Shown: piece after piece, positions 2,290 to 57,713 of the stretch
How positions within the stretch are numbered: position 1 is the stretch's first letter
How the letters are laid out: every line of letters starts with the position of its first letter
NCBI GenBank assembly: GCA_964530015.1
Contig: CAZGYC010000005.1
Location: 39,549 to 103,548 of the forward strand
Direction: 5' to 3'
DNA from: an uncultured Limnohabitans sp.
GTDB lineage: Bacteria; Bacteroidota; Bacteroidia; Cytophagales; Cyclobacteriaceae
DNA length: 64,000 nt
Position numbers and translations under genes: made by a program
Notes under the pieces: generated by a model
The model's database searches: none
What the model was told of the DNA's origin: nothing
What the model saw: only the letters and a program-made list of their open reading frames with translations

Positions 2290-5200
2290 ATGAAACACTA
2301 CCTGACCTCTTTGGGGCTTGCTTTTTTGTTTTTTGCCTGCGATCAGCAGACCAAGCTTGGAGTTTCCCGGGAAGTACCCTCCTACAGTCCGCCTGTGATC
2401 CGGGAGCTTGCTTCCCTTCCTGATTCCCTTCAGCCCATTTCCGTGAGCCTGCAGGACTTGCCACCGCCGAGAAAGATCCAGGTCCCGGGACAGGATGGAG
2501 GCAGCTATGTTTTTCTCGACGAAAACGGAGAGTCCCAGACCATCGCCCTTTTGGCCCCTGTCAGACAGGACCTGCAGGTATTGCTGGACGAAAGCGGAGA
2601 GGTAATCAGGGATTCTGGAGGCAAGCCCTTTCTTCTCGGAGAAGGCGGGCTTTCCCAGTTCAAAACCTATACGACAGATGACGGACTGGCACTCGATGCG
2701 GTCAATTGCGCCATTCTGGACAGCCGGGGCCACCTTTGGTTTGGGACAAACGGAGGCGGGGTAAGCCGCTACGATGGAAGCACGTTTACCAACTTTACCA
2801 CGGCACAGGGATTGGCGGGAAATATCCTCAGAAGTATGCTGGAAGACCGCAAGGGCAATATCTGGTTTGGGACCATCAGTGGAGTGAGCAAGTACGATGG
2901 CTACAGCTTTACCAACTATACCCGCGAAGACGGCCTCGGCGACGATGGCGTGTTCAGCATCTTGGAGGACCAAGACGGAACGATGTGGTTTGGTACGGGT
3001 GGGGGGGGCGTCAGCAAGCTCGAAGGGGAAAAATTCACCACCTACAGAACCGCAGACGGCCTCGCCGACAACTTTGTGATCAGTATCCTGGAGGGCGGGC
3101 AAGGCATCCTCTACTTTGGCACCTATGGAGGGGGGCTCAGCAGGTTTGACGGCCAGACCTTCAAGAATTTCACCGAGCAAGACGGCCTCTCCAGCAACCG
3201 CGTCAGGAGCCTCAGCCACAGCAGTCCGGGCAAAATCTGGATCGGGACGATCGGTGGCGGGGCAAGTCTTTTTGACGGCCAGACCTTTGCCAACTATTCG
3301 GTCAAAGACGGTCTGGCGGGCGATATCGTCCGTACCATCATCGAGGACTCCCACGGACACACCTGGTTTGCCACCGAGACTGGGATCAGCAGGTTGGACG
3401 GACGGAATTTCACCTCCTACACCCGTAACCAGGGACTGCCTGCCAACTCGGTGCTGTCCATCGTAAAAGATGCCTCGGGAAAACTCTGGTTTTGTACCGA
3501 CGGAGGCGGGGTAGCCCGGTTTGACGGCATCGCTTTCACCAATTTTTCGGTGACCCAAGGCCTGGGAAACAACATCGTACTCAGCACCCTGGAGGACAGG
3601 GAGGGAAATCTCTGGTTTGGGACAGCCGGTGGGGGAGTCAGCAAATTTGACGGGAAAAGCTTCCTCACCTACACCACCTCCCAAGGCCTGGGGGGAGACA
3701 TCGTGATCAGCATGATCCAGGATCGCGCCGGGAATTTCTGGTTTGGCACGGGCGGCGGGGGCGTCAGCAGATTTGACGGAAAGACATTTACCACCTACAC
3801 CAGCGCCCATACGCTGGGAGCCGATGAGATCTATTCGATCGCCGAAGACCGTCTGGGCAACCTTTGGTTTGGAAGCGAAGGCGGCGGACTGAGCAAATTT
3901 GACGGAAATGCCTTTACCACCTATACCTCCGATCACGGGCTTGCCGGCAATGTGATCCTCAGCATCCAGGAAGATGCGGAGAATCAGTTGTGGATCGCAG
4001 CCGTAGACGGCGGGATCAGCAGATTCGACGGGGAAAAATTCACCAACTTCTCCACCGCCCAAGGCCTGGCCAACAATGCCGTGGTCCGGATAAAAGAAGA
4101 CCTTCAGGGAAATCTCTGGATCGGCACGGAGCAGGGCTTGTCTTTTCTTCCAAAAAACAAACTCCTCTCCCAAACGAATCCCGGCGACTCCGCGTCTTAT
4201 TTTCTGTCTTTTGGAACACCCGAAGGACTCCCGGACAATCTGATCCAACAGATCGTCCCCATGGAAAACGGAAAAATAGCCGTCGGTACCAACCGTGGTT
4301 TTGCCTTTTTCGATGCCCCAAAAGCGGGAGAGGAATTCACGACGCTCGAAAATATCGAGACCTTCAACTCCAATACGGGCTATCCCGTCAAAGACCTCAC
4401 AGACGGACAAAACGGGATGTTTCAGGACAGCAAGGGGATCCTCTGGGCAGGCACGGGAAACAACAAGACCGCCCTGGTTCGCTTTGACCACCGGGAATTG
4501 GCCCTAAACCAAAGCCCTCCCCGGATTTTTCTCAAGCAAATCCGAATCAACGAGGAAATCATCTCCTGGAGCAGCCTTGCAGAACACCCCGCCCCCAAGG
4601 CCACGGTCTCCGAGGAACTGGCCACCTATGGCAAGGAACTCAGCGCAACCGAAAGAGAGGACTTGAGACGGAAGTTTGGCGGAATTGCCTTTGATGCCGT
4701 TTCCCCGTTTTACCCTTTCCCGCAAAACCTGGTTCTCCCCTATCGGCACAACCATATCAACATCGATTTCGGATCGGATGAACTGGCAAAACCCGACTTG
4801 GTAGAATACCAGTACATCCTGGAAGGGTATGATGCCACATGGAGCCCGGTGTTGAAAAAAACAAGCGCCACCTTTGGCAACATCCTGGAGGGAGACTATA
4901 CCTTCAGGGTAAAGGCGCGATTTACGGGACCTTCTGAGGAAGCGGCTGGGGAATGGACCGAACCGATCGAGTTTTCCTTTTCGGTGGAGCCCCCGATATT
5001 CCGCACCTGGTGGGCGTTTGTGGTCTATGCGCTGCTGTTCCTGTCGATGATCTACCCCATCCACCGGTACCAAAGGAACAAGGCGATCCATGCAGAGCAG
5101 GAAAAAGCCAGGGAACGGGAACTCGAACAGGCCCGGGAGATCGAAAAAGCCTACACCAAGCTGGAATCGGCCCATGAAAATCTGAAAGCCACCCAAAACC

Positions 5201-5982
5201 AACTGATCCAACAGGAAAAACTCGCGTCCCTGGGCCAGTTGACCGCGGGCATCGCACACGAAATCAAAAACCCGCTCAACTTCGTGAACAACTTCTCCGG
5301 ACTAAGCCTGGAGTTTTTGGATGAAATCGCGGAGGAGCTCGACAAAATGCCCGAGAGTGATTCCCTGGAAAACGTAAGGGACCTCCTGGCCGACATCAAG
5401 ACCAACCTGACCAAGATCAAGCACCACGGTGGCAGGGCAGACGGGATCGTGAAGTCCATGCTCATGCACTCCAGGGGAGGCAGTGGGGCGATGGAGCCTT
5501 CCGACCTCAACGAGGTGATCAAGGAATACGTCAATCTTTCCTTCCACGGGATGAGGGCCAACAAAAACCCGATCAATGTGGACGTAATTCTCAAATTGGA
5601 CGAAAGCCTTCCAAAAATCCCCCTCAATACGGAGGATTTCAGCCGGGTGATTCTGAACCTGACCAAGAATGCCTTTGATGCGATGCGGGAAAAAATCAAC
5701 AAATCCGGGCCGGAATACAAAGCCAAACTGGAAGTACGGACCACAGACCTCGGCGATTCCATCCTGATCGAAGTCGAGGACAACGGCCCCGGAGTGCCTG
5801 GGGAGATCCGGGACAAGCTGTTGATGCCTTTCTTTACCACCAAAAAAGGGACGGAAGGCACCGGACTGGGCCTCTCGATCACCCATGATATCATCAAAGC
5901 CCACAACGGCTCCCTGGACATCAGCTCGGAAGTCGGTGAGTGGACCCGGTTCAGCATTACGATTCCGAAGCAGGCCGATTGA
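2290..5982 (+). CDS. Sensor histidine kinase HK1: periplasmic Reg_prop beta-propellers, Y_Y_Y domain, TM helix, HisKA, HATPase_c
   Basis: About 44-aa blade repeats (GNIWFGTxGGGVSxFDG), Y_Y_Y-like LEGYD...GDYTFRVKA, TM segment WWAFVVYALLF, H-box AHEIKNPLNF, G boxes DNGPG and GTGLGLS. Start moved to ATG 2290, which gives a signal peptide. Confidence 0.92.
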   Translation: MKHYLTSLGLAFLFFACDQQTKLGVSREVPSYSPPVIRELASLPDSLQPISVSLQDLPPPRKIQVPGQDGGSYVFLDENGESQTIALLAPVRQDLQVLLDESGEVIRDSGGKPFLLGEGGLSQFKTYTTDDGLALDAVNCAILDSRGHLWFGTNGGGVSRYDGSTFTNFTTAQGLAGNILRSMLEDRKGNIWFGTISGVSKYDGYSFTNYTREDGLGDDGVFSILEDQDGTMWFGTGGGGVSKLEGEKFTTYRTADGLADNFVISILEGGQGILYFGTYGGGLSRFDGQTFKNFTEQDGLSSNRVRSLSHSSPGKIWIGTIGGGASLFDGQTFANYSVKDGLAGDIVRTIIEDSHGHTWFATETGISRLDGRNFTSYTRNQGLPANSVLSIVKDASGKLWFCTDGGGVARFDGIAFTNFSVTQGLGNNIVLSTLEDREGNLWFGTAGGGVSKFDGKSFLTYTTSQGLGGDIVISMIQDRAGNFWFGTGGGGVSRFDGKTFTTYTSAHTLGADEIYSIAEDRLGNLWFGSEGGGLSKFDGNAFTTYTSDHGLAGNVILSIQEDAENQLWIAAVDGGISRFDGEKFTNFSTAQGLANNAVVRIKEDLQGNLWIGTEQGLSFLPKNKLLSQTNPGDSASYFLSFGTPEGLPDNLIQQIVPMENGKIAVGTNRGFAFFDAPKAGEEFTTLENIETFNSNTGYPVKDLTDGQNGMFQDSKGILWAGTGNNKTALVRFDHRELALNQSPPRIFLKQIRINEEIISWSSLAEHPAPKATVSEELATYGKELSATEREDLRRKFGGIAFDAVSPFYPFPQNLVLPYRHNHINIDFGSDELAKPDLVEYQYILEGYDATWSPVLKKTSATFGNILEGDYTFRVKARFTGPSEEAAGEWTEPIEFSFSVEPPIFRTWWAFVVYALLFLSMIYPIHRYQRNKAIHAEQEKARERELEQAREIEKAYTKLESAHENLKATQNQLIQQEKLASLGQLTAGIAHEIKNPLNFVNNFSGLSLEFLDEIAEELDKMPESDSLENVRDLLADIKTNLTKIKHHGGRADGIVKSMLMHSRGGSGAMEPSDLNEVIKEYVNLSFHGMRANKNPINVDVILKLDESLPKIPLNTEDFSRVILNLTKNAFDAMREKINKSGPEYKAKLEVRTTDLGDSILIEVEDNGPGVPGEIRDKLLMPFFTTKKGTEGTGLGLSITHDIIKAHNGSLDISSEVGEWTRFSITIPKQAD

Positions 5983-51791: not shown

Positions 51792-52523
51792 ATGAAGACC
51801 AACCTTTCCTCCGTGCTTTTTTCCCTGGCCATCGTCGCAGCGGCATTCGTACTCGGCCACGCCGTCGTCAACCGCAACCGGCCACAGGGAACCATCAACG
51901 TGACGGGGCTCGGTGAGCAAAACTTCACCTCGGACCTGATCGTCTGGGAGGGGAATTTTTCCAGGCAAAGCAGTGACCTCAAGACCGCCTATGCGGATCT
52001 GGAAAGAGACAAAACCGCAGTGACCGACTACCTGAAATCCAAGGGAATCCCTGCCGAACAGTTGGTCTTCAATGCGGTGAGCACCAATCCACTTTATCAG
52101 CAAAACTACACGGCCAACGGCACCTATGCGGGCCAGACTTTTACCGGCTATCAGCTCAGCCAAACCCTGGTCATCGAATCCAAGGAGGTGGAAAAAGTCG
52201 AAAAAATCAGCCGCGAAATCACCGAGCTGCTCAATCAGGGGATTACGTTCTATTCCCAGCCCCCCCGCTACTACTACACCCAACTCGAGTCCCTCAAACT
52301 GGAGATGGTCGCCAAAGCCACCGAGGACGGTCGGATCCGGGCTGAGCGCATCGCGGAAAACTCCAACTCCAAGCTCGGCGACCTGATCACGGCCAACATG
52401 GGCATCTTCCAGATCACGGGGCAAAACTCCGGCGAAGACTATTCCTGGGGCGGCACGTTCAATACCTCGGCCAAGAACAAAACCGCTTCGATCACCATGA
52501 AGCTGAGTTTTGAGGTGGATTGA
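51792..52523 (+). CDS. SIMPL (DUF541) domain protein
   Basis: INVTGLGE, ARIRAERIA-like segment, GIFQITG. Confidence 0.88.
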   Translation: MKTNLSSVLFSLAIVAAAFVLGHAVVNRNRPQGTINVTGLGEQNFTSDLIVWEGNFSRQSSDLKTAYADLERDKTAVTDYLKSKGIPAEQLVFNAVSTNPLYQQNYTANGTYAGQTFTGYQLSQTLVIESKEVEKVEKISREITELLNQGITFYSQPPRYYYTQLESLKLEMVAKATEDGRIRAERIAENSNSKLGDLITANMGIFQITGQNSGEDYSWGGTFNTSAKNKTASITMKLSFEVD

Positions 52524-52566
52524 GTTACCGCTGTGGGAACTTTTTGCTATGTTTACTTTTTCCAAA

Positions 52567-52863
52567 ATGAGAATAATTGCCAAAAGGACACTTTGGGAAT
52601 TCTGGGAAATTCATTCTGAGGCCGAACAGTCCCTTAAATCCTGGTTTAGGGAAATGGAGCTGGGAAGTTGGGCTAATCTCAACCAACTGAAAGCAGATTA
52701 TCCTTCTGCCAGCATCGTAAAGGAAAACCGGGTAGTCTTCAATATCAAGGGCAACCATTTCAGGCTGATGTCAAATTTAGTTTTGAATATCAGACGGGTT
52801 GGATCCGATTTGTGGGAACCCACTCGGAATATGACAAGATTAACGCAAGGCCATTTAAAATGA
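52567..52863 (+). pseudogene. higB: HigB toxin, frameshifted
   Basis: MRIIAKRTL...VFNIKGNHFRL in one frame; VKFSFEYQTGWIRFVGTHSEYDKI continues in another frame after 52768-52770. Confidence 0.88.
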
Positions 52864-53210
52864 AACCTATACACACCGAAGCAGAATACGAGTCGGCACT
52901 CCAACGGGCGGAGGAATTGTTTGATTCCAAAAGAGGCACCCCTGAGGGGGATGAGCTGGAGGTTTTGTTGATTTTGATTGACAAATATGAAAAGGACAAT
53001 TTTCCAATAGATCTGCCGGATCCCATCGAAGCGATAAAATTCAGAATGGACCAGCTTCAAATAAAGCCCAAAGACCTGGCGGCATTGATAGGTTATAAAA
53101 GTCGTGTAAGCGAGATATTGAATAAGAAAAGAAAACTGACTTTGGACATGATCCGGAAAATTCACCGTGCGCTGAATATTCCCACGGAAGTGTTGGTCCA
53201 GGAATATTGA
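52860..53210 (+). CDS. higA: HigA antitoxin (HTH)
   Basis: KPIHTEAEY, LPDPIEAIKFRMDQ, SRVSEILNKKRKLT. Confidence 0.9.
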   Translation: MKPIHTEAEYESALQRAEELFDSKRGTPEGDELEVLLILIDKYEKDNFPIDLPDPIEAIKFRMDQLQIKPKDLAALIGYKSRVSEILNKKRKLTLDMIRKIHRALNIPTEVLVQEY

Positions 53211-53217
53211 TCCAAGT

Positions 53218-53319
53218 TTGAGTCCACTCCGATAAGTATGAAAATGAGAAATTTACCCCTTTAATTTAACTCCTGAGGCACTTTTTTTCAAAGAAAATGG
53301 CTTTTAGGAGTGGACTCAA
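53218..53319. mobile_element. MITE-like 102-bp element with 13-bp terminal inverted repeats
   Basis: TTGAGTCCACTCC (53218-53230) and GGAGTGGACTCAA (53307-53319) around an AT-rich non-coding interior. Confidence 0.5.
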
Positions 53320-53322
53320 GTT

Positions 53323-54264
53323 TTGAAAAAAGGAATTTCGCTCCACCCCCGCAACCTCCACCAGGGACGCTATGACCTGGAAGCGCTTTCGCTGACTTTG
53401 CCGGAGCTGAAAGGCTTCATTTTTACCAATGAATTTGGAAACCAAACGCTCGATTTCTCAAATCCGGAAGCGGTGAAAGCCCTCAATCGGGCGCTTCTGA
53501 CCCATTATTATCAGGTGGGGTTTTGGGATATTCCGGATGGGTTTCTCTGTCCGCCGATTCCGGGCAGGGCGGATTATATCCATTATCTCGCAGATTTGCT
53601 GGCGCAAAGCAAGGGGGGAAAACTCCCAAAAGGCGACAAAATCCGTGTGCTGGACATCGGAACAGGCGCCAATCTGATCTATCCGATCATTGGGAAAGTG
53701 AGTTATGGATGGCAATTTGTCGGCTCCGAGCTGAATCCCAAAGCCTTGGAATCAGCGCAACATATTCTGTCCCAAAATCCCGGTTTGGCTGCTGGCATCG
53801 AGCTGAGACATCAACCGGATTCCGGGAATATATTCTCGGGAATCCTCTTGCCGGAAGAATTCTTTGACCTGACCCTCTGCAATCCCCCCTTTCATGAATC
53901 GGCCGCTGCGGCATTGGAAGGAAGCCAAAGGAAAGTCCGAAATCTCAGCGGAAAGTCCAGCAAAGAGCCAAAACTGAACTTTGGAGGACAGGCATCCGAA
54001 CTTTGGACTGAGGGTGGGGAGCTGGAATTTATCCGAAAAATGATTCGCGAAAGCCTCAATTTCAAAAGTCAGGTCTTCTGGTTTTCCACCTTGGTCTCCA
54101 AAGAAATTAACCTCAAGCCCATTTCCGAACTGCTCCAAAAAGTCGGTGTCTCGCAGCAAAAAACCATCGGAATGGCACAGGGCAATAAGCAAAGCCGGTT
54201 TGTGGCTTGGACTTTTTTGAATCCCAGGCAGCAAGAGGCTTGGAAAAAATACCGATGGGTTTAA
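53323..54264 (+). CDS. rlmF: 23S rRNA m6A1618 methyltransferase
   Basis: LHPRNLH, CPPIPGRADY, LDIGTGA, CNPPF, ELWTEGGE, QGNKQSR. Confidence 0.95.
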   Translation: MKKGISLHPRNLHQGRYDLEALSLTLPELKGFIFTNEFGNQTLDFSNPEAVKALNRALLTHYYQVGFWDIPDGFLCPPIPGRADYIHYLADLLAQSKGGKLPKGDKIRVLDIGTGANLIYPIIGKVSYGWQFVGSELNPKALESAQHILSQNPGLAAGIELRHQPDSGNIFSGILLPEEFFDLTLCNPPFHESAAAALEGSQRKVRNLSGKSSKEPKLNFGGQASELWTEGGELEFIRKMIRESLNFKSQVFWFSTLVSKEINLKPISELLQKVGVSQQKTIGMAQGNKQSRFVAWTFLNPRQQEAWKKYRWV

Positions 54265-54393: not shown

Positions 54394-54807
54394 TTACGCA
54401 TTCAGCGTATATTCCACACTGATTTCCATCTTCAATGCCCTGGAGATCGGGCAGTTTTCCTCGGCATCTTTGACCTGCTTGGCAAATTCCTCCTCAGAAA
54501 TGCCATCCACTTGGGCTTTTAGCACCAAATGCGATTTTTTCAGGGTGCCTTCCTCAAAAGTGATGTTGGAGGTCACCTCCAGTGCTTTGGGGGGGAAATT
54601 CACTCCTGTGAGGTTGAAGCTGAGCTTCATCGCAAAGCAGCCCGCATGCGCTGCTGCGACCAATTCCTCGGGATTGGTACCCACCCCGTCTTCAAATCGG
54701 GTTTTGAAAGAGTATTGAGTTTTGTCAAGGACTGTGCTGGCGGTGGTCAGGTGGCCGGAGCCTTCTTTGCCGCTTCCATTCCATACGGCGGTTGCTTTTC
54801 TGATCAT
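54394..54807 (-). CDS. osmC: OsmC family peroxiredoxin
   Basis: YSFKTRFE, GTNPEELVAAAHAGCF, CPIS. Confidence 0.93.
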   Translation of the reverse strand: MIRKATAVWNGSGKEGSGHLTTASTVLDKTQYSFKTRFEDGVGTNPEELVAAAHAGCFAMKLSFNLTGVNFPPKALEVTSNITFEEGTLKKSHLVLKAQVDGISEEEFAKQVKDAEENCPISRALKMEISVEYTLNA

Positions 54808-54883: not shown

Positions 54884-54946
54884 TTCCCACAGATTTGAAC
54901 AGATTAAAATCACAGATTTACACAGAAAATGACAATCTGTGGGAAC
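54884..54946. repeat. Left flank repeat of the GxxExxY cassette
   Basis: 45-bp unit (54884-54928) identical to 55347-55391, followed by TGACAATCTGTGGGAAC. Confidence 0.9.
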
Positions 54947-54964
54947 AATTATTTAATTTAGTTA

Positions 54965-55345
54965 ATGCACGAGAATGAAATCACATTTTTGATCCGAGGT
55001 GCAATTTTTAAAGTTTACAACACACTTGGCCCGGGACTTTTAGAATCCAGCTATGAGGCGGCATTGGGTTATGAATTAACCAAATCTGGCTTGAATGTGG
55101 AACATCAAGTACCCATGCCTTTGATTTACGAAGGGTTAAAACTTGATGTTGGTTATAGAATAGACCTATTGGTTGAGAAAAAAGTAATTGTTGAAATCAA
55201 ATCAGTTGAGCTTTTACAGAATGTACATCATTTGCAAATAATGACTTATCTGAGGTTGTCAGGCATTAAGGTTGGGCTTTTAGTCAACTTCAATACAGAT
55301 GAGCTAACGGAGAATATTATTCGGAAGATCAATGGATACCTTTAG
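54965..55345 (+). CDS. GxxExxY protein (PD-(D/E)xK nuclease-like fold)
   Basis: GPGLLESSY motif, RIDLLVE...VEIKS; AT-rich. Confidence 0.92.
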   Translation: MHENEITFLIRGAIFKVYNTLGPGLLESSYEAALGYELTKSGLNVEHQVPMPLIYEGLKLDVGYRIDLLVEKKVIVEIKSVELLQNVHHLQIMTYLRLSGIKVGLLVNFNTDELTENIIRKINGYL

Positions 55346-55457
55346 GTTCCCACAGATTTGAACAGATTAAAATCACAGATTTACACAGAAAGGATAACAC
55401 CCCATCACAATAAATCAGTGATAATCTGTGTCCTTTTCTGTGACAATCTGTGGGAAC
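55346..55457. repeat. Right flank repeat / long hairpin of the GxxExxY cassette
   Basis: GTTCCCACAGATT...AATCTGTGGGAAC 13-bp inverted repeat with internal CACAGA and TCTGTG units. Confidence 0.9.
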
Positions 55458-56578
55458 TATTTCCTTGCCAGCCGTTTAAACACCTCCAAATACTGCTCGG
55501 TCACATGATCCCAATTGTATTTCTGAGTCAATCCAGAGCGGGCAGTCTGTCTCAATTCGCTCATGTTTTCCGGTTCGGATTCAGCTTTTTCTACAATTGC
55601 AGAGACAGATTCGGCCTTTTTATCAAAATACCATCCATGCTTTCCGTTTTGCAGCATTTCCTGGTTAAAGGGCGTGTCCAGGGCCAAAATGGCACAGCCA
55701 TAGCCCAAGGCCTTCAGCATCGCCGGATTGGTGCCGCCATACTCATGCCCGTGGAAATAGGCATAGCAATGCAAATAAAGTGAAGCCAACTCCGTCGGAT
55801 CGGTGACGTAGCCAGTGAACAGCAAGCGTGGGTCGTTGATGTTTTTAAGCCGGTTGGCCCAGGCATCTTCAAAGGGCACATCCCCCACAATGACCAGTTT
55901 CCGCCGGGATCCGGACTTCAAAAATCCGGCAATAATCAGGTCTGCATTGTTGTCCGGCACCAGCCTTCCCACGATCAGAAAATACCCCCGACTCTCCAGG
56001 TCCCACTTTTTGATTGGCCCCGACTCGACCGATTCCCTGGGATTTGCGCCGTATGCGATCACCTTGGAGTCGGCATCGAAAAGCTCCAGATACACCCTGC
56101 GCATTTCGTCGGAATCGTTGATGATCTGGTCGTAAAATTTGGTGGCCATCTTGGAGGCCCACTTGAAGTACTTCGAGCCTAGGCCCTTCCACTTGGGTCT
56201 GAGCCACTCCAGTCCATCGACATTGATGGCGGTAGGTTTTCCGAAAATCTTCGAAATCAGGCCAAAAGGACCGTTGCCGCTATTCACCACGAAGATCACG
56301 TCCACGTCCGAAAAGCAGGCATGGATCATCGAAAAAAAGGTATGCGAAAGCTGGGTGAGGCTTTTGGTCTCTATCGCAGGCGTGTAGATGCACTCGATCC
56401 CGTTGACAAAGCGGGGCTTTTCCACAAACAAAGCCCGGTGGTTGTACACCCGCACATGAACGCCTCTTTCGGAAAGTCTTTCCCCAAGTTCCTTGATCAG
56501 GGTATCATAGCCACCGTAGACATAGGGATAGCCCTTGGCACCCATGATGGCTACCTTCAGTCTTCGCTCAGTTGCCAT
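55457..56578 (-). CDS. DUF1972 / GT4 glycosyltransferase
   Basis: KVAIMGAKGYPYVYGG, INVDGLEW, HGHEYGGTNP. Confidence 0.9.
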   Translation of the reverse strand: MATERRLKVAIMGAKGYPYVYGGYDTLIKELGERLSERGVHVRVYNHRALFVEKPRFVNGIECIYTPAIETKSLTQLSHTFFSMIHACFSDVDVIFVVNSGNGPFGLISKIFGKPTAINVDGLEWLRPKWKGLGSKYFKWASKMATKFYDQIINDSDEMRRVYLELFDADSKVIAYGANPRESVESGPIKKWDLESRGYFLIVGRLVPDNNADLIIAGFLKSGSRRKLVIVGDVPFEDAWANRLKNINDPRLLFTGYVTDPTELASLYLHCYAYFHGHEYGGTNPAMLKALGYGCAILALDTPFNQEMLQNGKHGWYFDKKAESVSAIVEKAESEPENMSELRQTARSGLTQKYNWDHVTEQYLEVFKRLARK

Positions 56579-57713
56579 CGCGGGGTTTGATCTTTTGCTC
56601 GAAAGCCTCCAGGCTGTATTCCGAAAGAACCCTGGCCCTTCCGGCTTTTCCAAATTCCGCGCGCAGTGCAGGGTCTGCGATCAGTTTTTCCAGGGCCTCG
56701 ACGCCCCGTTCGACATTGCCGACGGGGATCAAAAAGCCGGTTTTCCCGTCCATGACCATTTCGACCGAGCCTCCGGAATCTGTCGCCACTACCGGCAGGG
56801 CGGAGGCCATCGCCTCCAATACGACCGTGGGAAAAGGATCCTGAAATATGGAGGGCAAAACGAACACATCCATGGCCTTCATCAGCACCGGGACATCCGT
56901 CCGATATCCGAGATAGGAGACCCGATTTTCCAGCTTTTTGTCTTTGATCTTTCTTTTCAAATCTTCCAGGATCGGTTCATAGCCCGCAAATGGATCCCCT
57001 ACCAGGATAAAATGGACCCTTGGGTTTTTTCGGGCGATGCACTCGGCCATTTCCAGGAAAAAAGCCTGTCCCTTGTGCGGATTGACACGCCCCACCATGC
57101 CTACAATCAACCGATCTTCAGGCAGTCCCGCTTTTCTCTTTGCCTCTGGCAGCTCTTCCAAAAACTCCCCGTAGGGGATGCCGTTGTGCACGACCTGGAT
57201 GCGGGATTTTTTCAGCAAAGGCTGCCAATGGTCTGCCACGGCATGGGAGACGGCTATCGGACGGGGTGTGGTGCTGTCCATCAGGCCACAAATGAACTTC
57301 ACCAGCGGCTTTGGTCCGGGAAAAATCTCATGGATATGCCACTGGTGGGGAATCTGGTTTCGCTTAGCCCAATAGGCGCCGACAATCACCGCCAATGTGT
57401 TGGAATACACCGATTCGAAGTTGTACTTGCCGTGAAGGTCGCCCAGGAAACGATAGGCCTGCAGATTTTTGCCCAATCTGTTGAGCAATCCCGAGGGGCT
57501 GACGTATTTCCTCCGGAGAATCCCCAGATTTTGGATATAGACCGGAAATCCTTCCTCCCTCAGGATCGGCTCCAGCGGTCCCGGACCCGTGAGCAACACC
57601 ACGGGATTGTAGCCTTCGCGCCGGTACAGCCGGAGTACCTGCAGGATGATCTTGCCGGTGCCATAAAGGTCCGAGGAGCTTTGCAGAAAAAGGACGTTGC
57701 GTGGGTTAGCCAT
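56568..57713 (-). CDS. GT4 glycosyltransferase
   Basis: VGRVNPHKG, DPFPTVVLEAMASALPVV. Confidence 0.9.
   Translation of the reverse strand: MANPRNVLFLQSSSDLYGTGKIILQVLRLYRREGYNPVVLLTGPGPLEPILREEGFPVYIQNLGILRRKYVSPSGLLNRLGKNLQAYRFLGDLHGKYNFESVYSNTLAVIVGAYWAKRNQIPHQWHIHEIFPGPKPLVKFICGLMDSTTPRPIAVSHAVADHWQPLLKKSRIQVVHNGIPYGEFLEELPEAKRKAGLPEDRLIVGMVGRVNPHKGQAFFLEMAECIARKNPRVHFILVGDPFAGYEPILEDLKRKIKDKKLENRVSYLGYRTDVPVLMKAMDVFVLPSIFQDPFPTVVLEAMASALPVVATDSGGSVEMVMDGKTGFLIPVGNVERGVEALEKLIADPALRAEFGKAGRARVLSEYSLEAFEQKIKPRDGN

Follow-up and report, generated by a model that had tools for sequence, protein, structure and literature searches.

The ends of Tn7 and Mu carry several phased, directly repeated protein-binding sites, with the left end differing from the right, and Tn7 uses a PD-(D/E)xK nuclease, TnsA. 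In the systems of repetitive extragenic palindromes (REP/REPIN) and REP-associated tyrosine transposases (RAYT), a single-copy gene with a long vertical inheritance is flanked by palindromic doublets that match the gene type, and the palindromes are dispersed in hundreds of copies. Free-standing homing endonuclease genes include that of a PD-(D/E)xK enzyme, I-Ssp6803I; the open reading frames (ORFs) of 23S rRNA intervening sequences encode a four-helix-bundle family, TIGR02436. Here we describe a cassette located in a stretch of 64,000 nt of DNA from an uncultured bacterium (listed as Limnohabitans sp., GTDB family Cyclobacteriaceae; assembly GCA_964530015.1, contig CAZGYC010000005.1, positions 39,549 to 103,548), the whole of which we call the window. 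The cassette occupies positions 54884–55457 of the window, between osmC and a glycosyltransferase gene; its only gene codes for a GxxExxY nuclease and its flanking arms are arrays of short phased repeats (iterons). With about even confidence we consider it to be one copy of a large family of compact inverted-repeat-bounded units of ∼0.45–0.6 kb, with a GxxExxY nuclease of ∼125 amino acids (aa) as the sole gene, the nuclease probably reading its own iterons. It is very probable that such a discrete, widely distributed inverted-repeat-bounded cassette has been gained and lost at many sites.

Among the described systems, the cassette would work most like a family of insertion sequences (IS), mobile insertion cassettes (MIC) or miniature inverted-repeat transposable elements (MITE) equipped with Tn7- or Mu-like multi-site ends. 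As in the IS, MIC and MITE families, it is a short cassette with terminal inverted repeats situated in spacers, with gene-less derivatives made of left plus right arm and with a local pile-up of copies and fragments. It differs from these families in that its sole gene encodes a 125-aa PD-(D/E)xK nuclease, not a DDE, HUH, serine or tyrosine enzyme, and in that no target-site duplication was seen at >20 cassette ends; no cognate IS with the same ends was seen in ∼190 loci. Like Tn7 and Mu, the cassette has phased repeated sites in its ends, a left end differing from the right one and a PD-(D/E)xK nuclease, but it is without a TnsB- or MuA-like DDE partner, an ATPase and a target selector, it is 50–100 times smaller, and its termini are TTTCYC...GRGAAA, not TG...CA.

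As in the REP/RAYT systems, the palindromes of the cassette go with the gene type and are vertically inherited; however, the enzyme is a PD-(D/E)xK nuclease rather than a HUH Y1 enzyme, and the PDDEXK_3 gene is the single ORF of the cassette. No dispersed copies of the palindromes were found elsewhere in the window or in 766 kb of related loci, with one solo copy in a metagenome, and for the DNA so covered we rejected a dispersed REP-like repeat as the identity of the flanks. The likeness to integron attC cassettes consists in an ORF that has an imperfect palindrome behind it, variable in length but conserved at its ends, in palindromes on both sides of the gene, in gene-less units and in within-genome similarity. 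The ends, GTTCCCACAGATT ... AATCTGTGGGAAC (GTTCCC...GGGAAC), have GTT/AAC outermost, in contrast to the attC order RYYYAAC...GTTRRRY; further, the arms are iteron arrays, the gene is inside the palindrome in most relatives, and what is conserved is sequence, not structure (a compensatory change in one of 30 predicted pairs and a covariation term of +1.56). Neither intI/attI nor a Phage_integrase domain was found among the ORFs between 42 and 64 kb in the window, and the syntenic genomes had none within 5 kb. Homing endonuclease genes resemble the cassette as small selfish-looking nuclease genes in spacers, with presence/absence polymorphism and a course of gain, decay and loss (pseudogenes and remnants were seen); in the cassette, though, the conserved sites are inside the element, and the empty radA–FAD and fabD–fabG targets have no iterons. 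The ORFs of 23S rRNA intervening sequences are likewise small inverted-repeat-bracketed ORFs inserted in conserved transcription units, often with many paralogues; they encode another protein fold, and the repeats of the cassette are phased iterons with conserved sequence.

A first-pass annotation, made from the letters of the window, had described helically phased repeats and had counted homologues lacking such flanks as evidence against a mobile unit. Phasing and repeat flanks turned out to be real and general across the family. In a metagenomic set of 72 dereplicated loci with relatives at 56–86% identity, at least four CRCWGA iterons were found within 200 bp of the gene in 69 loci; the iteron density was 22.5 per kb near the gene versus 2.2 per kb at distances >600 bp. 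The iterons, with the consensus TTYnCRCWGATT, form an array of three or four at each end. Spacing between iterons on the same strand, taken over the 72 loci, has a peak at 9–10 bp, then at 12–13 and 23 bp, and is never 11 bp. Throughout 766 kb of fetched Bacteroidota loci, iteron palindromes were situated beside GxxExxY genes or at the osmC–glycosyltransferase junction only. Distant members share such flanks as well: all seven homologues taken from plasmid or chromid records (35–51% identity, six phyla) have flanking repeats, and in six of them inverted repeats bracket the gene, the Fusobacteria copy having right-arm-type direct repeats on both sides.

An orientation map of 111 loci placed the gene mostly inside one inverted-repeat pair. 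The commonest layout, seen in 19 loci, is left-arm iterons, gene, right-arm iterons, with near-perfect terminal repeats GTTTCCCGCAGATTAC ... GTAATCTGCGGGAAAC. The compact elements are 442–575 bp long and mostly take up all of the spacer; both ends carry the terminal consensus TTTCYCRCWGATT. The window copy is built as palindrome, gene, palindrome, with a right-end stub and a left arm added internally, and this Algoriphagus arrangement is, judging by the layouts, a more elaborate variant of the left arm–gene–right arm archetype. Arms in Algoriphagus are not mirror images: each keeps its own spacers across species and loci, GGATTAAAATCACAGATT on the left versus TCTGTGTCCTTTTCTGTG on the right; the ends of transposons are similarly differentiated into left and right. 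A Saprospirales homologue (68% identity) has eleven tandem 59-bp units after the gene, starting with TTCCCGCAGATTT. In the Saprospirales metagenome-assembled genome (MAG) concerned (locus L095, 4380–5100; also L096), one inverted copy accompanies these eleven tandem iteron units 3′ of the gene, and an opposite-strand ORF of 223–253 aa with no Pfam match, called across the repeats, is probably a false call.

Comparisons of occupied and empty sites delimit the insert. In B. finegoldii, the order is radA, 2 nt, cassette, 5 nt, FAD gene, and in Parabacteroides it is radA, 13 nt, FAD gene; S. parapaucimobilis has the cassette between fabD and fabG, where S. paeninsulae has 33 nt. The extra DNA in both comparisons spans arm end (TTCAC...) to arm end (...GTGAA), and there are no iterons in the empty 13-nt and 33-nt spacers. 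These comparisons show an insert with the arms as its limits. The unit is present at many unrelated sites. Of the minimal mobile or excisable unit put forward in the first-pass annotation, the part that stands is a discrete insert that is, or was, mobile; the unit is, however, better bounded by the outer inverted-repeat arms than by the direct repeats that were first taken to release it. The central idea, that the unit is a minimal mobile one and of a kind not described before, is upheld.

The closest homologues of the window nuclease are found in Algoriphagus spp. (85–94% identity). The gene is syntenic, between osmC and the glycosyltransferase gene and with palindromic iteron elements on both sides, in A. 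litoralis, A. sanaruensis, A. alkaliphilus and a fourth genome, and the layout of the whole window cassette recurs in A. litoralis, A. alkaliphilus, A. sanaruensis, A. taiwanensis and the MAG C9. The junction was sampled without bias by an OsmC search over 185,579 species genomes. It was occupied in 10 species or MAGs; it contained a solo or degenerate palindrome only in nine species or MAGs, including the closest relative of the window (OsmC 95% identical); and it was without any element in the outgroup and in one inner clade. The empty junctions anticipated in the first-pass annotation thus exist, as empty and as solo-palindrome alleles, and with occupancy varying among Algoriphagus species the locus is not fixed across the genus. 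The solo palindromes in Algoriphagus may be either targets or leftovers.

Two cassette types use this same site: the type of the window, with CACAGA/TCTGTG iterons and a 126-aa protein, and a sister type with CGCAGA/TCAGCG iterons and a protein of 125–127 aa. The sister type is polyphyletic, with at least two distinct host branches carrying it, and three of its four loci retain a CACAGA-type stub, TCTGTGGGAACTA, against the stop codon of the glycosyltransferase gene. Its presence at the same site in at least two branches is best read as replacement. For most species pairs, the four-fold-degenerate sites of the nuclease gene are 0.3–0.5 identical, as in the neighbouring genes, and the amino-acid identity of the nuclease between species is 0.81–0.94. 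Left arms are 82–98% identical between species (82–91% for the window left arm against those of other species), and with this result we revised an earlier view of purely concerted evolution of the arms. Two pairs (the window and A. litoralis; two MAGs) are clearly more alike in the cassette than in the flanks. Because synonymous sites are near saturation and yet the protein and the arms are conserved, the junction copy is old and under constraint. Taken together, the junction comparisons show a mostly vertically inherited copy, with purifying selection on protein and arms and with occasional exchange, which has been lost repeatedly, leaving solo palindromes behind.

Relatives with 80–81% identity and arms of the same kind are present at two other loci. 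The A. ornithinivorans copy is between a hypothetical gene and an aminotransferase gene, and the A. oliviformis copy is between genes for a major facilitator superfamily transporter and phospholipase C; the osmC junction of A. oliviformis itself is empty. At 4373–5229 of locus L011, we saw five tandem units of ∼186 bp, 94–98% alike, each consisting of a decayed 3′ remnant of a GxxExxY gene and a palindrome. The similarity of these units points to recent local amplification.

Sequence data of metagenomes gave two further observations on arm copies. A 53-nt unitig (runs X1–X4), with 3–4× the depth of the locus, matches the right arm (window 55423–55461) with two mismatches and then continues into other sequence. 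A 1068-nt contig (run X24) contains a solo left-plus-right palindrome, corresponding to 4874–5495 of locus L004, in unrelated flanks; the single candidate for an excision joint, seen in X24, was rejected as being this solo palindrome at another site. Given the unitig and the solo palindrome, these communities contain further arm copies elsewhere.

The 126-aa protein of the window matches PF13366 (PDDEXK_3) with E = 3e-41 (140.8 bits, cut-off 22; profile positions 2–116 of 117) and TIGR04256 (GxxExxY) with E = 2e-41 (140.8 bits, cut-off 35). Its GxxExxY motif is G24-L-L-E27-S-S-Y30, and the predicted catalytic residues E27, D67 and E77-x-K79 are invariant in 38 homologues. In the AlphaFold2 model (pLDDT 94), the order of secondary structure elements is H-H-E-E-E-H-E; the top folds found by Foldseek in the PDB were, with modest E-values, those of Cas4 SSO0001, lambda exonuclease, CinB, DrdV and MGME1, with AdnAB also among the best matches. 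The match to Cas4 (4ic1) had a probability of 0.97–1.0, with Foldseek E-values of only 3e-3. The PD-(D/E)xK-like fold ascribed to GxxExxY proteins is borne out by the model and the fold matches, as a restriction-endonuclease-like alpha/beta fold, and the catalytic site is intact. Cas4/RecB enzymes are the best fold matches of the nuclease, account for its weak profile hits and have the same E...D...ExK catalytic site; the nuclease differs in its size of ∼125 aa and in being without an Fe-S cluster domain and a CRISPR context. We regard it as a minimal PD-(D/E)xK core of the Cas4/RecB type, probably catalytically active.

A sequence search of the PDB with the nuclease gave no match, and exact-protein look-up gave no exact match for the GxxExxY or the OsmC protein of the window. 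PADLOC gave marginal Cas4 hits only and the PHROGs marginal Cas4-like hits only; a known defence system was rejected on the PADLOC result. A phage-borne origin was rejected as well: 50,697 phage records gave no match, and 2.9 million viral contigs gave a single one. The GxxExxY/PDDEXK_3 family comprises 17,641 clusters at 50% identity (E ≤ 1e-3). The searchable literature mentions it in passing only, with no assigned function, and the claim of an undescribed system holds insofar as we found no published description of repeats around GxxExxY genes, though curation notes and closed-access papers may hold remarks. Proteins of 270–295 aa with two GxxExxY domains exist (P0121, P0124–P0126 and others); these may have come from the fusion of tandem cassettes or may be genuine enzymes with two domains.

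The type of iteron follows the type of nuclease. CRCWGA iterons accompany the nuclease clade down to ∼43% identity, in Bacteroidota, Gemmatimonadota, Spirochaetota and Fusobacteriota; a Sphingomonas copy (44% identical) has the variant iteron CGCGAAGG. AGGATT iterons accompany the 35%-identical L082/Persicobacter subfamily, in which the copies of a Chitinophagaceae MAG and of Persicobacter share 64% identity, and ACAAATC-type units a Prevotella copy. One Gemmatirosa replicon has two paralogues, one with CCGCAGAGGA palindromes and the other with GGACTGAAGAA palindromes. Since iterons differ by nuclease subfamily even on one replicon, a shared host factor or a shared trans-acting enzyme is unlikely to be their reader. 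In the sequences compared, the only protein that always co-varies with the iterons is the nuclease encoded by the cassette, which would make it the candidate reader.

Several properties of the window copy had been given in the first-pass annotation, and these agree with our reading of the repeats (Table 1). The cassette, with its AT-rich GxxExxY gene, has a GC content of 0.31–0.37 versus ∼0.52 in the flanks. The 45-nt direct repeats at 54884–54928 and 55347–55391 are identical at 45 of 45 positions, have starts 463 bp apart and have ACAGA at offsets 6, 16, 29 and 39, i.e. with spacings of 10, 13 and 10. Both repeats are closed by TGACAATCTGTGGGAAC (54930–54946 and 55441–57), which does pair with the repeat start, one arm pair being complementary at 12 of 12 positions and another over 21 nt at 86%. 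The left arm together with the short right-end piece makes a 63-bp palindromic element (54884–54946), equal to the 112-bp element on the right minus 49 internal bases. The right flank has the three TCTGTG units reported earlier, with TCAGTG at 55415 being additional, and it does end at the stop of the glycan locus: its final position, 55457, coincides with the first base of the stop codon that bounds the minus-strand glycosyltransferase ORF.

Table 1. Features of the cassette and of its boundary genes (positions in the window)
Feature	Position	Strand	Details
Whole cassette	54884..55457	.	574 bp, from outer left arm through gene to outer right arm; occupies the osmC–glycosyltransferase spacer
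Outer left arm (direct-repeat copy 1)	54884..54928	+	Iterons CACAGA 54888, AACAGA 54898, CACAGA 54911, CACAGA 54921
Short internal right-end piece TGACAATCTGTGGGAAC	54930..54946	+	One inverted iteron, TCTGTG at 54936
GxxExxY / PDDEXK_3 nuclease gene	54965..55345	+	126 aa
Internal left arm	55346..55391	+	Begins at the base after the stop codon; iterons 55351, 55361, 55374, 55384
Variable centre of right palindromic element	55392..55412	.	Not conserved between species
Outer right arm	55413..55457	-	Inverted iterons TCAGTG 55415, TCTGTG 55425, 55437, 55447; conserved block TCTGTGTCCTTTTCTGTG
OsmC peroxiredoxin gene (boundary, outside cassette)	54394..54807	-	
GT4/DUF1972 glycosyltransferase gene (boundary, outside cassette)	55457..56653	-	Last gene of the glycan locus

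The terminal 12-mer TTCCCACAGATT, with at most one mismatch, has four matches in the window, all at the cassette locus, versus 0.55 expected, and none of 100 shuffles reached four; a two-iteron pattern has seven matches versus 0.41 expected. The cassette flanks had no Rfam match at E ≤ 1, and a known RNA element was rejected as their identity. A scan for sigma-70 promoters and terminators gave nothing above chance; the scan does not cover Bacteroidota promoters. Resemblances to DnaA boxes, to the heptamers of recombination signal sequences and to Tn7 ends were too weak and were dropped.

The annotated ORFs between 42 and 64 kb in the window include no recombinase or transposase domain, and syntenic relatives have none within 5 kb. 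The earlier statement that there is no recombinase in cis is right in that none is present in the cassette or near it; it overlooked the nuclease itself, the best candidate for a reader of the repeats. We propose that the nuclease would itself bind the phased iterons, as a multimer on duplex DNA, and would act at or between the two arms, where cleavage could result in excision, copying or retention of the element. The cassette would then be an autonomous minimal mobile or selfish element. That the nuclease binds its own phased iterons is, in our judgement, somewhat likelier to be true than not; the further step, in which binding or cleavage of the iterons by the nuclease drives mobility or retention, is put forward tentatively. 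Extended to the whole family, and with similar reserve, the proposal would be that the GxxExxY genes, which form at least 17,000 clusters at the 50% identity level, encode the enzymes of an unrecognized superfamily of minimal autonomous elements of ∼450 bp. In each of them a single Cas4/RecB-like nuclease would read private iterons in its own differentiated left and right ends and would drive excision, copying or retention, with no DDE, HUH, serine or tyrosine recombinase and no target-site duplication.

A number of observations weigh against this proposal. No PD-(D/E)xK enzyme is known to perform strand transfer by itself. A gene that is addictive or of use to the host, with regulatory sites in cis, would account for the long stay at one locus and for the conservation of protein and arms no less well than an active transposon would. 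No target-site duplication was found in 22 compact copies or in the two comparisons of occupied and empty sites, and no excision or circle joints at the locus were found in Logan unitigs, which break at repeats. The layouts are heterogeneous, and some copies have arms on one side only. The covariation between protein and iterons comes from a handful of subfamilies and is confounded with shared ancestry except in the Gemmatirosa pair. Finally, CACAGA and CGCAGA palindromes are present beside genes that are 95% identical (L008–L010, A. ornithinivorans, versus L105). Fine specificity is thus loose, as the purine at position 2 of the iteron switches beside such similar genes, and a strict link between cassette type and iteron purine was rejected on this comparison.

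It is possible, if in our view unlikely, that the cassette is non-autonomous, as are MIC, integron cassettes and palindrome-associated transposable elements (PATE): its arms would be acted on by a recombinase, transposase or HUH enzyme whose gene is at another place, and GxxExxY would be cargo, e.g. for defence or addiction. The absence of a recombinase from the cassette and from 13 kb to the left and 8.5 kb to the right of it would be accounted for, as would the solo palindromes, one of them in unrelated flanks, and the palindrome modules that can be swapped beside a nearly unchanged gene. A gene of 176–208 aa with a weak match to Y1_Tnp (PF01797) is present ∼4 kb from the A. ornithinivorans cassette (L008–L010, 1–290); such a gene could be taken as a candidate for the enzyme in trans, but no iterons adjoin it. 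A mobilizing enzyme in trans also fails to explain why the GxxExxY family is the sole passenger at all loci sampled, in six phyla, and why iteron type follows nuclease subfamily even where two paralogues are on one replicon. There is no recurrent neighbour gene at the loci examined, the ends differ from the attC R-box order, and neither REP-like dispersal nor target-site duplication was seen. We also give a low probability to a domesticated or addictive nuclease gene that is no longer mobile, whose arms would be operators titrating or repressing the nuclease and, in operon-embedded copies, maybe an RNA stem cut by RNase III as in rRNA intervening sequences. Purifying selection on protein and arms at one locus despite saturated synonymous sites would be expected for such a gene. 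Most cassettes take up the spacer in which they are situated and point the same way as both neighbours, as in all six of the annotated cases from plasmid records and in 13 of the 22 metagenome cases that were clear, the window copy being an exception, opposite to both of its neighbours, and the upstream arm ends 0–40 nt from the start codon in compact copies; these features, too, would suit regulatory arms. What regulation leaves unexplained is that, whatever the subfamily, the upstream arm recurs downstream of the gene in inverted form, that the limits of insertion match the arm ends, and that there are many unrelated loci, solo palindromes and tandem remnants. As for an RNA stem, it would require complementarity only, and yet the core sequence is conserved across phyla with no covariation; moreover, there is no match to an Rfam family.

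The mechanism favoured in the first-pass annotation, in which the flanks fold as single-stranded DNA (ssDNA) hairpins and recombination between the 45-bp direct repeats frees a 463-bp circle that reinserts, is to our mind very improbable. The direct repeats are identical, and both flanks can indeed fold, as had been said, better as ssDNA than all of 200 shuffles (z = -3.5 for the left 63-bp element and -5.5 for the right). Solo palindromes at syntenic sites are the leftover expected from direct-repeat recombination, and the tandem units of L011 would fit unequal exchange between repeats. However, the direct repeats are peculiar to the Algoriphagus-type layout, and the commonest layout of the family has no direct repeats flanking the gene. 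In the right element of the window, the arms match at 33 of 46 positions, with the mismatches in the spacers; the consensus fold of eight aligned palindromes consists of iteron-on-iteron helices only, and the covariation term given above is unfavourable. Core sequence is kept between Gemmatirosa and Bacteroides genomes, which complementarity alone would not require. Because only iterons pair, with essentially no covariation, and because the core sequence is conserved across phyla, sites read in duplex DNA are favoured over hairpins, and the suggestion of hairpin substrates finds no support. In addition, homologous deletion accounts for loss but not for arrival at new, iteron-free sites. A compact inverted-repeat-bounded cassette whose nuclease probably reads its own iterons remains the reading we prefer, at the graded strengths stated above.

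The neighbourhood of the cassette contains other accessory DNA. At 52510–53210 of the window, there is a low-GC pair of genes for HigB (PF09907) and an HTH_3 antitoxin, which A. alkaliphilus does not have in its corresponding spacer (SIMPL to RlmF-like gene); the pair is followed by a 26-nt inverted repeat (53211–36 and 53301–26). The region 52510–53326 adds another small accessory insertion at a distance of 2 kb from the cassette, and it has no iterons. Between its RlmF-like gene and osmC, A. alkaliphilus has an additional gene (L004, 3745–4131), whose 128-aa product matches no Pfam family; since the window is without it, the neighbourhood is a minor hot spot of accessory genes. An unrelated 167-bp MITE-like insert with ends acccgcattatgcattag ... 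ctaatgcatatttcgggtt and a TTAA-like duplication breaks a GxxExxY gene in a metagenome contig resembling A. ornithinivorans (L105, 1548–1714). Fic-family genes were seen directly downstream of the Treponema copy (L183, 1621–2697) and ∼5 kb from the A. alkaliphilus copy (L004, 10195–10381), which may be a coincidence.

Subfamily-specific phased arrays that mark the limits of an insert give a large family with no assigned function a testable role. If the nuclease were the mobility enzyme, the cassettes would be a new kind of transposable element and a source of small DNA-binding nucleases, programmable by choice of paralogue; if the elements were autonomous, they would bring a new transposition or homing chemistry and would be the smallest class of protein-coding mobile elements in bacteria. 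Even if the nuclease is not the mobility enzyme, the cassettes are a common unannotated cause of variation in spacer length, of false ORF calls over arrays and of assembly breaks, and they account for insertions in conserved operons such as fabD–fabG and radA.

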